Shown piece by piece: positions 6,836-50,690 of a stretch of DNA of 64,000 nt. The stretch's first letter is position 1, and every line of letters starts with the position of its first letter. The position numbers and the translations under genes were made by a program. The stretch covers positions 31,028 to 95,027 of the forward strand of contig JAAFIV010000008.1 in assembly GCA_013298775.1 (NCBI GenBank). Reading direction: 5' to 3'. This stretch comes from Ignavibacteria bacterium. Lineage in GTDB: Bacteria; Bacteroidota; Ignavibacteria; Kapaibacteriales; UBA4661. The notes beneath the pieces were generated by a model. That model was not told the origin of the DNA. It did no database searches and saw only the letters and a program-made list of their open reading frames with translations.

Positions 6836-6940
6836 TTGCCCTCATCCCCCGCCTTCTCCCAGAAGGAGAAGGAGCTAAGACGAAGAACATCGAACGCTTC
6901 TGAAGCCCTCTCCCTCTGGGAGAGGGTTGGGTGAGGGCAA
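6836..6940. repeat. Palindromic miniature element, CCCTCACCCAACCCTCTCCC...GGGAGAGGG family
   Basis: Terminal IR ttgccctca/tgagggcaa and two internal hairpins. Homologous to copies at 31327-31423, ~11524-11623 and ~50564-50660. Confidence 0.85.
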
Positions 6941-30365: not shown

Positions 30366-32903
30366 TTACGCCACATCCAAGAGCGAGTAATCCTTGCTAT
30401 TCTGACGCATAAACTCCTCGCGTATTGTAGTGTTTTCGGGCTTCCTGAGCTGTGCATCGTCAGCAATGAGCGCGAATGCGTCCTTACGAGCGGTGCTAAT
30501 GACATCGCCATCGCTCATTAAATCCGCAAACGCAAATTCTGGTACGCCAGATTGCCGCGTTCCCATGAAATCGCCTGGACCGCGCAAACCTAAATCTACT
30601 TCGGCAATCTTGAAACCATCGGTGGTTTCCTGCATGGTTTTGAGGCGAATAATCGAGGCTTTACGCTCGTTTCCTTCGTTTTTGCCTTGCAATTCGCGCT
30701 TGTTCAAATGAAACTTAAAATGGTCTTTCGTAGCGAGCAAACAGTACGATTGCTCCGCGCCACGCCCCACACGCCCGCGTAACTGGTGGAGTTGCGCCAA
30801 TCCAAAGCGTTCTGCATTTTCAATGAGCATCACGCTGGCATTCGGCACGTCAATTCCCACTTCCACGACCGTTGTTGCAACAAGGATATGAAACTCGCGG
30901 TTTTTGAAGGCTTTCATGGCATCTTCTTTTTCGTACCAAAACATTTGCCCGTGCAGCAAACCAAGTTTCAAATCAGGAAACACCTCGTGTTGCAGGTATT
31001 CATAATGCTCAACCGCAGATTTCGCCTCTACTTTCTCCGATTTCTCCACAAGCGGATACACGACATACGCCTGCCGCCCTTTCTGCACCTGCTCTTTGAT
31101 GAAATCCCACACAAGCGGCATTTTACTTTCAAAGACCACTTTTGTTTTAATCGGCTTGCGATTTTTGGGCAATTCATCAATCACCGAAACATCAAGGTCG
31201 CCGTACAAGGTCATGGATAAGGTGCGCGGAATGGGTGTTGCGGACATGACGAGGACGTGGGGAGCGAGATTTTTTGTTGCTTCTGAGGTATTCTTATCTT
31301 CCTGATTGCGACATTCTCCTTGTGCCAATCCCTCACCCAACCCTCTCCCAGAAGGAGAGGGCTTCAGAGATAGCTCTGTGTCTTGCCCTTCTCCCTCTGG
31401 GAGAAGGGTTGGGATGAGGGATTCACGAGAATCCAGCAAGTCTCCCTGAAACGACGCGCTCGCCTTATTCTTCAACTCCGCACGCTGCAACACCCCGAAA
31501 CGGTGCTGCTCGTCAATCACCACAAACGCCAGACGCTTGTATTCTGCGGCACTTTGGAAGAGTGCGTGCGTCCCGACGACGATGTGCGCCGCGCCAGAGC
31601 TTATCTTCTCGCCAATTTCCGTGCGCTGTTTTTTCTTTTGCCCGCCAATCAGTTGCACGACGTTTATCGGCGCGAGGTTGTGTGCGGTGCGGTGGTCGTT
31701 GAGCTTTGTGCAATAGTCCGCAATTGTGTTGTAATGCTGCTCGGCGAGGATTTCTGTGGGAGCCATAAGAGCGCATTGGTAGCCGCTATCAATTGCAGCG
31801 AGCATTGCCAAAAGTGCGACGACCGTTTTACCAGAACCTACGTCGCCCTGCAAGAGCCTATTCATCGGCTCTTTGGTGCGCATGTCGCCCATAATTTCCC
31901 GCAAAACCCGCTTTTGTGCTTTCGTAAGTTCAAAAGGTAATTGCTCCAGCATTGCACGCGCAGTTGAGCTTTTTTCCTGCACAGGCGGCGCAGCATCAAG
32001 CGTTTTTGTGCCTTTGTGCCGCATAGCAAGCAGCAATCCGAAAAAGAATAATTCCTCGTACTTCATGCGTTCACGCGCCTTTTCAAGCTCTTCGTGCGAA
32101 TCGGGGAAATGCAGTTGCCGCACGGCGCGTTGGATTTCAGGAAAATCATATTTCTGCAAAATGCTTTCCGACAAGGTTTCATGCAGGTTGGGAAGCTCTT
32201 GCTCAATCACCGATTGCACCACATTTCGCAGCACCCGCATACTAATTCCAGCATCTTTCATCTTTTGCGTGAGGCGGTATTTCGGCAGTATGCGCCCTTC
32301 GCCGTAGAGTTCGGCATCGTCGGGGTCAATTTTATCAATTTCTGGATGCGCAAATTGAATTTTTCCGTAGGCAAAATCCGCCAGACCGCTCACAGCCAAG
32401 AGTTGGTCTGCTTCGTAAATGCGCTTGAAATAGTCGGCTTGATTCCAAAACACGATTTCCGCTTTCACGCCCGAATTATCGTCTAATTCCACCACAACCA
32501 TTGTGCGATTTTTCCCAAACGTCCGCTCTCGTACCGCACGGACATACGCAACCACCGTGATTTCCGATTGCAACTTCATATTTTGGTCAGAAAATGCGTC
32601 GGTCTGTTGCGCTTGCACGAGTGCGTTGCGCAATTCCCTCAGAGACGGCACCGTTGCTCGGTCAATGTACGAGCGTGGATAGAATTTCAGCACATCTGCT
32701 GCCGTCAAAATACCAGCTTGCGCCAATGCTTCAGCGCGGCGCGGTCCAATACCGCGCAGATACTGGATTGGGGAGATATTTTTCTGGGTAGAAGTGCTTG
32801 GTGAAACAGGAGTTTTAGGCGCAGAGGTATGAGGAGACGACGAGGCGGCAGATAGCTCTGGTGCTTGCGTTTGAGCTTCCGATGTATTGGGAGAAGTATT
32901 CAT
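30366..32903 (-). CDS. recG: ATP-dependent DNA helicase RecG with an insertion between motifs II and III
   Basis: RLLQGDVGSGKT, MAPTEILAEQH, IDEQHRFG, MSATPIPRT, ATTVVEVGIDVPNA, GLAQLHQLRGRVGRG, DLGLRGPG. Confidence 0.97.
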   Translation of the reverse strand: MNTSPNTSEAQTQAPELSAASSSPHTSAPKTPVSPSTSTQKNISPIQYLRGIGPRRAEALAQAGILTAADVLKFYPRSYIDRATVPSLRELRNALVQAQQTDAFSDQNMKLQSEITVVAYVRAVRERTFGKNRTMVVVELDDNSGVKAEIVFWNQADYFKRIYEADQLLAVSGLADFAYGKIQFAHPEIDKIDPDDAELYGEGRILPKYRLTQKMKDAGISMRVLRNVVQSVIEQELPNLHETLSESILQKYDFPEIQRAVRQLHFPDSHEELEKARERMKYEELFFFGLLLAMRHKGTKTLDAAPPVQEKSSTARAMLEQLPFELTKAQKRVLREIMGDMRTKEPMNRLLQGDVGSGKTVVALLAMLAAIDSGYQCALMAPTEILAEQHYNTIADYCTKLNDHRTAHNLAPINVVQLIGGQKKKQRTEIGEKISSGAAHIVVGTHALFQSAAEYKRLAFVVIDEQHRFGVLQRAELKNKASASFQGDLLDSRESLIPTLLPEGEGQDTELSLKPSPSGRGLGEGLAQGECRNQEDKNTSEATKNLAPHVLVMSATPIPRTLSMTLYGDLDVSVIDELPKNRKPIKTKVVFESKMPLVWDFIKEQVQKGRQAYVVYPLVEKSEKVEAKSAVEHYEYLQHEVFPDLKLGLLHGQMFWYEKEDAMKAFKNREFHILVATTVVEVGIDVPNASVMLIENAERFGLAQLHQLRGRVGRGAEQSYCLLATKDHFKFHLNKRELQGKNEGNERKASIIRLKTMQETTDGFKIAEVDLGLRGPGDFMGTRQSGVPEFAFADLMSDGDVISTARKDAFALIADDAQLRKPENTTIREEFMRQNSKDYSLLDVA
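31327..31423. repeat. Palindromic element inserted in frame within recG
   Basis: aatccctcacccaaccctctcccagaaggagaggg...cccttctccctctgggagaagggttgggatgagggatt, homologous to intergenic 6836-6940; encodes LIPTLLPEGEG...PSPSGRGLGEG. Confidence 0.9.
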
Positions 32904-33009
32904 GGCATTGCACAATGCAAGGGCGAAATCGGGAACAATGTTCTCCGTGGGTCAAAAATATCTTTCCATATCAATTTTTCTACATCAATTTTTCCATGTC
33001 AATTCCATC

Positions 33010-50544: not shown

Positions 50545-50690
50545 ACTCACCTTACGCAAAAGACCCTCACCCAACCCTCTCCCAGAGGGAGAGGGCTTCA
50601 GAGCTAGTCTCCACCAACCCTCGCCCTCTGGGAGAGGGTCTCGCGCAGCGAGGGGTGAGGGCGGCGTGAGAGTTTGCGTGTAAGGTGAAT
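50544..50690. mobile_element. MITE-like palindromic element, second copy of the 11503-11653 core
   Basis: aactcaccttacgc...ccctcacccaaccctctcccagagggagaggg...gggagagggtctcgcgcagcgaggggtgaggg...gtaaggtgaat; nearly identical to the 11.5-kb copy. Confidence 0.8.

Follow-up and report, generated by a model that had tools for sequence, protein, structure and literature searches.

Rickettsia palindromic elements (RPEs) are the best known palindromic repeats that lie in frame within essential proteins. They are many-copy repeats of approximately 100-150 bp, which are read in frame, as a conserved peptide, in many unrelated housekeeping genes at places where the fold of the host protein allows it (PMC10969869). 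Here, we describe a repeat of similar habit in the recG gene of an Ignavibacteria bacterium (assembly GCA_013298775.1; designated G000). Its genome comprises 5.19 Mb in 95 contigs, with 48% G+C. The gene is located in a stretch of 64,000 nucleotides (nt) of contig JAAFIV010000008.1 (positions 31,028 to 95,027), which was analyzed as a whole and is referred to below as the window; positions given without a contig label are those of the window. A preliminary description of the same DNA, made from its letters alone, had proposed that a mobile palindromic element is translated between two helicase motifs of RecG. Our analyses indicate that, in this lineage, the recG reading frame has very probably taken up a non-autonomous palindromic repeat, which would be carried as a tolerated selfish passenger. 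The phenomenon itself is known, and the insert adds a further case of it rather than a new kind of thing.

Two other groups of repeats invite comparison with this element. The BoxC/PIT/TMECO intrastrand triplex motif has been described in Escherichia coli and other Proteobacteria (PMC4666352). In E. coli K-12, it is reported to be always intergenic and sometimes occurs as inverted pairs of two arm types; it has been tied to local sequence variability, and its transposase is not known (PMC4666352). The published pattern consists of a C-rich 9-mer, a 3-6 nt loop, a G-rich 9-mer, a short loop and another G-rich 9-mer (CCCNCNCCC...GGGNGAGGG...GGGNGAGGG) (PMC4666352). Repetitive extragenic palindromic (REP) sequences and REPINs form inverted hairpin doublets with a spacer, reach hundreds of copies, and are gained and lost between close relatives (PMC3116915, PMC6006769). 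In-frame REP insertions in genes are also on record (PMC6006769).

The interval between helicase motifs II and III is unusually long in this RecG. In G000, 76 residues separate DEQHRFGV (residues 468-475) from PHVLVMSAT (from residue 552), as compared with 12-30 residues in 70+ relatives, and the preliminary description was right to place this value far above that of a typical RecG. Residue numbers refer to a protein of 849 amino acids (aa) counted from an upstream TTG at 32915 (open reading frame (ORF) 30366-32915, minus strand). The distance from DEQH to SATPIP amounts to 90 aa in G000. Of 79 Kapabacteria/Bacteroidota loci, most have 26-37 aa, and the congeners with an empty site have 40-44 aa; in RecG of Thermotoga maritima (1gm5), only about 4 residues stand opposite 68 residues of the G000 protein. 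The remainder of the enzyme is complete. Its Pfam architecture comprises the wedge/OB, DEAD, Helicase_C and RecG domain-3 C-terminal parts, and a 53-sequence alignment of this protein and its relatives (A1) revealed that all invariant columns are kept, including those of Walker A (GDVGSGKT), PTE, DEQH, ATPIPRT and HQLRGRVGR. Both the reading frame and the helicase motifs had been reported as intact, in agreement with these data. The top solved relative, both in sequence (E = 2e-140) and in modeled fold (E = 6e-47), is the Thermotoga enzyme 1gm5.

In an AlphaFold2 model (mean predicted local distance difference test score (pLDDT), 78), residues 501-539 have pLDDT values below 50 and no secondary structure; this low-confidence coil is flanked by helices 475-498 and 535-548, and the surrounding RecA-like domains are confident. 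The insert is predicted by this model to be a floppy loop in the linker joining motifs II and III, and a tolerated insertion in a loop of the motor domain is also what had been suggested initially. As a site that accepts additional sequence, the linker could serve for engineered insertions. A separate case is provided by a sister genus (L028 of G010), in which the DEQH-to-SATPIP distance is 54 aa, with an unrelated extra stretch, KGVNGHLPLVIGEDIHAQASNA; the length of the RecG linker varies even without recognizable repeats.

The inserted DNA consists of a 91-nt palindromic core with two inverted, BoxC/TMECO-like arms and of more degenerate flanks (Table 1). The two-arm palindrome is located at 31327-31423, and an extended inverted repeat at 31306-31318/31427-31439. 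Over 128 nt (31304-31431), the recG copy pairs without gaps with another copy of the element and its flanks (G000:C5:18997-19087), which is situated inside another gene. By virtue of this similarity, the repeat accounts for approximately 44-49 residues (D495-Q538 at least), a figure that agrees with the 46-50 extra residues relative to the empty congeners. The palindromic origin put forward in the preliminary description therefore stands, but the extent given there (about 32 residues, or 97 nt) was too small. In total, the element appears from its sequence to span about 128-148 nt, i.e., the 91-nt core and its degenerate flanks. The spacer between the arms is the part that varies most across copies. 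DNA homology between G000 and its sister species, G006, is interrupted precisely around the element, at 31440 and 31276.

The element belongs to a large family. In the window, the hairpin core pattern occurs 13 times versus 0 expected, and one of the members is the intergenic copy (reported at 6836-6940) whose relationship to the recG insert had been recognized from the outset; at the DNA level, both arms are common to the two copies, and the spacer of the intergenic copy is longer. A search of the whole G000 genome revealed 215 loci with core hairpins of the pattern CCCTCTCCC-NNN-GGGAGAGGG, of which 163 are paired and 52 single. When the recG copy was used as query, an exact unit of 91 nt emerged, of which G000 has 28 other full-length copies; the arms have three blocks each, e.g., CCCTCTCC(T)-TCT-GGGAGAGGG-TT-GGGTGAGGG. 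Most of the 91-nt copies are cores of two longer families (A and B), each with its own terminal inverted repeats (TIRs), consistent with the earlier observation of the element in MITE cores (MITE, miniature inverted-repeat transposable element). The family was also found in seven of eight congeners and in one sister genus. The insert is not shared with the RecG of congeners, which lack the element at this site, and it does have DNA relatives: the 28 other full-length copies in the genome are 87-96% identical to it.

Examination of long open frames over family members, checked by Pfam, identified at least 13 further hosts in which the element lies well inside the protein. These are GltB, an AddA/UvrD-type helicase-nuclease, SMC, DnaE, Mfd, DNA polymerase I (PolA), LeuRS, MnmE, MoeA, two alpha-2-macroglobulins, an HTTM/VKGC protein and an M1-peptidase-like protein, so that the peptides do recur elsewhere in the proteome, where the preliminary description had advised looking for them. 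In all 13 hosts, the element is positioned in an inter-domain linker, at a domain edge or in a gap of the Pfam profile. The genic share is about 7% of the 215 loci, and this is far under the coding share of a typical bacterial genome. Single or paired arms are in frame in mfd (C34:165193-168777), dnaE (C20:22014-25799), smc (C42:234-4070) and the addA-like gene (C26:28915-33156). Peptides predicted from the insert include LIPTLLPEGEGQDTELSLK, and PSPSGR-containing peptides are predicted for RecG, LeuRS, MnmE and GltB.

The genic copies also agree in how they are read. The 91-nt core can be read in six ways (two orientations with three frames each), and only three of these are open, containing no stop codon. 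A single common frame is used by all five genic 91-nt copies, i.e., those in recG, leuS, mnmE, one macroglobulin gene and the gene for the M1-like protein. This frame yields (S/T)LIPTLLPEGEGQ...PSPSGRG(L/Q)GEG; the other open readings hold Cys, Trp and Phe. The use of one frame in all five copies is a signature of selection filtering the insertions. The survivors would be only those insertions that entered permissive loops, kept the frame and used the hydrophilic, stop-free reading.

The same frame preference could be taken as a sign that the insert was co-opted, either as a Pro/Gly-rich loop that provides a new interaction surface or as an mRNA hairpin that adjusts the expression of recG by pausing ribosomes, by offering a site to RNase III or by attenuating transcription. 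The strong hairpin anticipated in the recG mRNA is indeed predicted: for the mRNA strand of 31295-31455, the computed folding energy is -89.7 kcal/mol, which corresponds to a z of -7.4 and was not reached by any of 200 shuffled sequences. Several hosts, namely RecG, Mfd, DnaE, PolA, SMC and the AddA-like protein, are DNA-transaction proteins, which would suit a co-opted role as well. However, the same peptide occurs in GltB, LeuRS, MnmE, MoeA and the macroglobulins, which share no common pathway; sister species manage without the element, and the loop is modeled as disordered. Moreover, purifying selection by itself would be expected to produce the frame preference, as the peptides of the other open frames are rich in Cys, Trp and Phe. 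We therefore consider co-option very improbable, and under the reading of a tolerated passenger, the strong mRNA hairpin would be a side effect.

Comparison with congeners provides information on how the element entered its hosts. In five of them (G006, G005, G007, G001 and G002), leuS, mnmE and polA lack the element and thus represent empty sites. In leuS (G000:C46:21360-21450 versus L119 of G006), 93 nt are found in place of 24 nt, and the junctions have only CCC and GG in common with the ends of the element. The host stretch that was lost, GGGCATGAGGAAGG, itself resembles the terminus of the element, and this likeness suggests microhomology-guided entry. In mnmE, approximately 40 nt were replaced by the element. 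Classical MITE insertion with target duplication was rejected, because at recG, leuS and mnmE no duplication was present; 24-40 nt of loop DNA were replaced instead. The element may rather have entered by insertion-with-replacement via 2-3-nt microhomology between C-runs or G-runs, not by cut-and-paste with target duplication, for example by end joining or by a template switch where the DNA is prone to form structures. In recG, the repeat lies in the hypervariable linker between motifs II (DEQH) and III (SAT). These junctions, with their replaced loop DNA, 2-3-nt microhomology and lack of duplication, offer a clue to spread by repair or template switching and not by a classical transposase.

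By analogy, the element would in all likelihood work as an RPE does, i.e., as a selfish repeat that occupies permissive loops of essential proteins. The characteristic trait of RPEs, one repeat family in frame in many unrelated genes, was found here in 14 Pfam-verified hosts, including RecG. The two differ in their hosts and in their structure. Rickettsia is a reduced intracellular alpha-proteobacterium, whereas the present host is a free-living member of the Kapabacteria (FCB group) with a 5.2-Mb genome; in addition, the arms of the present element are G-run/C-run triplex motifs, and only about 7% of its loci are genic. We know of no sequence relationship to RPEs, and the likeness is drawn from mode of life, not from sequence. 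In-frame palindromic repeats in essential proteins, best known from Rickettsia, thus also occur in a free-living bacterium of the FCB group.

The arms themselves are closest to the BoxC/PIT/TMECO motif. The blocks (CCCTCTCCC / GGGAGAGGG / GGGTGAGGG), the order of blocks and loops, and the arrangement as inverted pairs of two arm types are the same; each is tied to DNA that varies locally, and a transposase is not known for either. The coding-strand arm of recG fits the triplex pattern with one mismatch once a 2-nt second loop is allowed, as this loop is TT (2 nt) and not the strict 3 nt. Throughout the G000 genome, the strict pattern is matched at 11 sites, and another 124 require the 2-nt loop. 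Because of this shorter second loop, we designate the element a variant of the BoxC/PIT/TMECO motif. It differs from the described motif in the 2-nt second loop of most copies, in the 10-nt blocks of one arm and in occurring in another phylum. In contrast to the K-12 motif, at least 14 copies are inside coding sequence and can be read as protein, and longer MITEs with TIRs have the element as their core. A blastn search against 5,426 E. coli genomes gave no match, low-complexity blocks of 9-11 nt being below the reach of that method; a comparison by eye with Table 1 of PMC4666352 shows the blocks to be identical to those of the E. coli motif. A motif of BoxC/TMECO type, strictly intergenic in E. 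coli reports, can therefore be read as protein in this organism. To our knowledge, neither the function nor the mobility mechanism of the BoxC/TMECO motif has been established.

With REPs and REPINs, the element shares the inverted hairpin doublet with a spacer (the arms are 24 nt apart), the hundreds of copies, and gain and loss between close relatives. Unlike these, it has no GTAG/CGTC foot and no cognate REP-associated tyrosine transposase (RAYT) flanked by the repeat. Neither of the Y1 transposase (PF01797) loci of G000 is flanked by the triplex-motif repeat; both carry other hairpins. The genome also hosts a separate, true REP family (GGCACAGAC-N6-GTCTGTG). A REP/RAYT origin of the recG element was rejected, as the two Y1 loci have other repeats and the congener-type RAYT was not found by tblastn.

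In some congeners, the RecG linker accommodates a much larger insert. The DEQH-to-SATPIP distance is 232-278 residues in G006, G005 and G007, and in G008, a contig break falls at the linker, and the following contig carries the end of the same insert. Between translated REP hairpins (VAQTFLSV ... QTRMSVP), the additional residues make up a Y1/HUH transposase (Pfam Y1_Tnp). Judged by its sequence, this insert is a complete REP-RAYT-REP cassette read in frame; it is represented by loci L065 (G006), L066 (G005), L067 (G007) and L068 (G008). The cassette was found in six protein clusters (including P0001-P0004 and P0006), in which RNLPHW, DH(V/I)H, WQDES(F/Y)DRIIR and Y(I/M)xxNP are conserved down to approximately 50% identity, with HUH and Tyr motifs kept at this level. 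Modeling of the G006 protein with AlphaFold gave, for the transposase portion (about 135 aa), a separate beta-alpha domain (pLDDT 65-90) held by two disordered tethers of about 50 residues each. The G000 insert resembles these cassettes in occupying the identical RecG linker and in its in-frame, read-through position within a permissive loop; it differs in that it encodes no enzyme, the cassettes having a folded HUH/Y1 domain. One protein loop thus connects two kinds of in-frame selfish DNA, a repeat and a RAYT cassette.

Members of the same RAYT lineage are in frame in other phyla as well, where the hosts are restriction-modification enzymes (type ISP/MmeI-like), DNA methylases, an aminoacyl-tRNA synthetase and an SNF2 helicase; in Planctomycetes, a member is located at the C-terminus of thiamine-phosphate synthase. 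In each of these in-frame cases (proteins P0005-P0034), translated REP hairpins are on the flanks. We found no paper that describes in-frame REP-RAYT-REP cassettes within host genes, and in a large survey of RAYT-type transposases, proteins of excessive length were set aside, being regarded as fusions or as errors of annotation (PMC6006769).

The presence of the cassette in congeners raises the question of whether the G000 lineage once had it too and lost it by deletion, the triplex-motif element coming with or after this event and the flanks being partly REP remnants. In a RecG tree built with the linker excluded, G000 and the RAYT-bearing G006 are sisters (100/100 support); the cassette is likewise present in G008, G005 and G007. 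G000 contains 665 REPs of the cassette type (counted with the pattern GGCACAGAC-N6-GTCTGTG, one mismatch allowed), as compared with 532 in G006, 236 in G001, 95 in G007, 28 in G005 and 2 in G002, and a tblastn search with the congeners' RAYT against G000 gave no match. Such REPs look like an orphan REPIN population. They are mostly inverted doublets, e.g., at C1:1693, C1:6074 and C1:10874, and are the most numerous among the sampled congeners. The flanks of the recG core show a weak resemblance to REP (TGGCACA and AGAATGTC in the right order, with p of about 0.04-0.06 each; p of about 0.04-0.12 in the shuffling tests), and the empty G001, which stands beside the RAYT-bearing G007 in the tree, keeps 33 nt with a possible REP remnant at the linker.

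Yet the flanks are closer to another copy of the triplex-motif element (p of about 0.006-0.02 against shuffles), so that the shuffling tests favor the MITE copy at C5 over REP as the source of the flanks, although the sequences compared are too short for a firm choice. In addition, the patchy presence of RAYT could equally mean repeated gains. A former cassette would alter the history of the site and not the identity of the 91-nt core, and we regard it as a possibility that falls somewhat short of an even chance. The most economical history, though a similarly tentative one, is that of a cassette which is old in the genus and was lost repeatedly; G000 would be among the lineages without it, its linker now being filled by the triplex-motif element. 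The linker could then be a long-lived niche for selfish DNA, occupied by a RAYT cassette in at least four congeners and, after its loss from G000, by the repeat, a view that we put forward with reserve. If true, the locus would present one selfish element succeeding another within the same protein loop, and the genome a natural experiment on a REPIN population after loss of its RAYT.

Against the reading of the recG insert as a mobile repeat tolerated in the protein, several points have to be set. No target-site duplication was seen at the recG, leuS and mnmE junctions, where it was looked for, and no partner enzyme for the element was found in G000; the term mobile therefore rests on copy number, identity and presence/absence. 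The outer limits of the element are uncertain by about 10 nt. Empty alleles, for which a search among close relatives had been advised, exist in congeners (those with 40-44 aa), but the closest relative, G006, has the RAYT cassette in place of a truly empty RecG allele, and the event in G000 was accordingly either insertion into an empty loop or replacement of an earlier cassette. That the insert is transcribed and translated with RecG and that the enzyme still functions is what we infer from the sequence. Finally, the identical 845-aa protein is on record from a single assembly only, so that an assembly error is formally possible.

Misplacement of the repeat into recG by the assembly of a 95-contig draft, or a recG pseudogene in the making, would also leave the protein known from one assembly. 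The element is, however, shorter than a typical read pair, and its flanks, in a contig of 150 kb, are unique. The reading frame is intact, no conserved residue has been lost, and misassembly would not be expected to give fourteen independent in-frame insertions with one preferred frame; we consider an artefact or a pseudogene extremely unlikely. As to an intein or intron, no splicing-type motifs were recognized by eye, no search having been run, and the 91-nt insert encodes just a 31-residue peptide and no enzyme. The tolerated repeat thus remains the preferred reading, and relative to the preliminary description, it now includes BoxC/PIT/TMECO arms, a longer element, the lack of target-site duplication and the RAYT cassette in the sister species.

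Table 1. Positions of recG, of the palindromic element inside it and of related repeats in the window
Feature	Position	Strand	Remarks
recG coding sequence	30366..32903	-	ORF; Pfam RecG_wedge, DEAD, Helicase_C, RecG_dom3_C; ATG start at 32903 gives 845 aa
Helicase motif III, SAT	31236..31244	-	Residues 558-560; A559, T560, P561, I562 and P563 invariant in A1
C-side linker, EDKNTSEATKNLAP	31260..31303	-	DNA homology with G006 from about 31276 onward; model helix 535-548
Full repeat-derived DNA, core and degenerate flanks	31304..31431	-	Encodes D495-Q538; 128-nt ungapped alignment to other copy
Palindromic core, 91 nt, inverted pair of BoxC/TMECO-like arms	31330..31420	-	Encodes S499-G529 (SLIPTLLPEGEGQDTELSLKPSPSGRGLGEG)
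Second arm, CCCTCTCCT-TCT-GGGAGAGGG-TT-GGGTGAGGG on the coding strand	31330..31361	-	Encodes PSPSGRGLGEG
Inter-arm spacer, 24 nt	31362..31385	.	Own small hairpin (inner stem in the RNA fold); encodes QDTELSLK
Arm with 10-nt blocks, CCCTTCTCCC-TCT-GGGAGAAGGG-TT-GGGATGAGGG	31386..31420	+ (triplex-motif orientation)	Coding strand reads SLIPTLLPEGEG; hairpin I4 100% complementary
Native N-side linker, LQRAELKNKASASFQGDLL	31432..31490	-	DNA homology with G006 up to 31440; predicted helix 475-498
Helicase motif II, DEQHRFGV	31491..31514	-	Residues 468-475; D468, E469, Q470, H471, F473, G474 and V475 invariant in A1
Intergenic relative of the recG element	6839..6937	.	Both arms the same, spacer longer; alignment A3
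Further family member	50560..50660	.	One arm with the TCTCGCGCAGCGAGG inner hairpin variant; alignment A3

Several other repeats and transposase-like genes of G000 were observed in the course of these searches. Two further Y1 (RAYT-like) genes are located at G000:C1:198447-198791 and C8:8052-8396; the hairpin type differs for each, and the C1 copy has an in-frame TAA. A DUF559 nuclease was considered as a partner of the element and rejected: the sole DUF559 gene is bordered by a different C-run/G-run repeat, and no link was shown. This gene (Vsr-like; G000:C6:56678-56995, L111 1450-1950) is bracketed by inverted CGCCCCC-TTGATAAA-GGGGG-AAC-GGGGG repeats, which constitute a separate C-run/G-run/G-run family. 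Hairpins of this C-run/G-run/G-run type are frequent insertion sites of family-A MITEs (TIR CAGGGCTGTTAAGTTCT).

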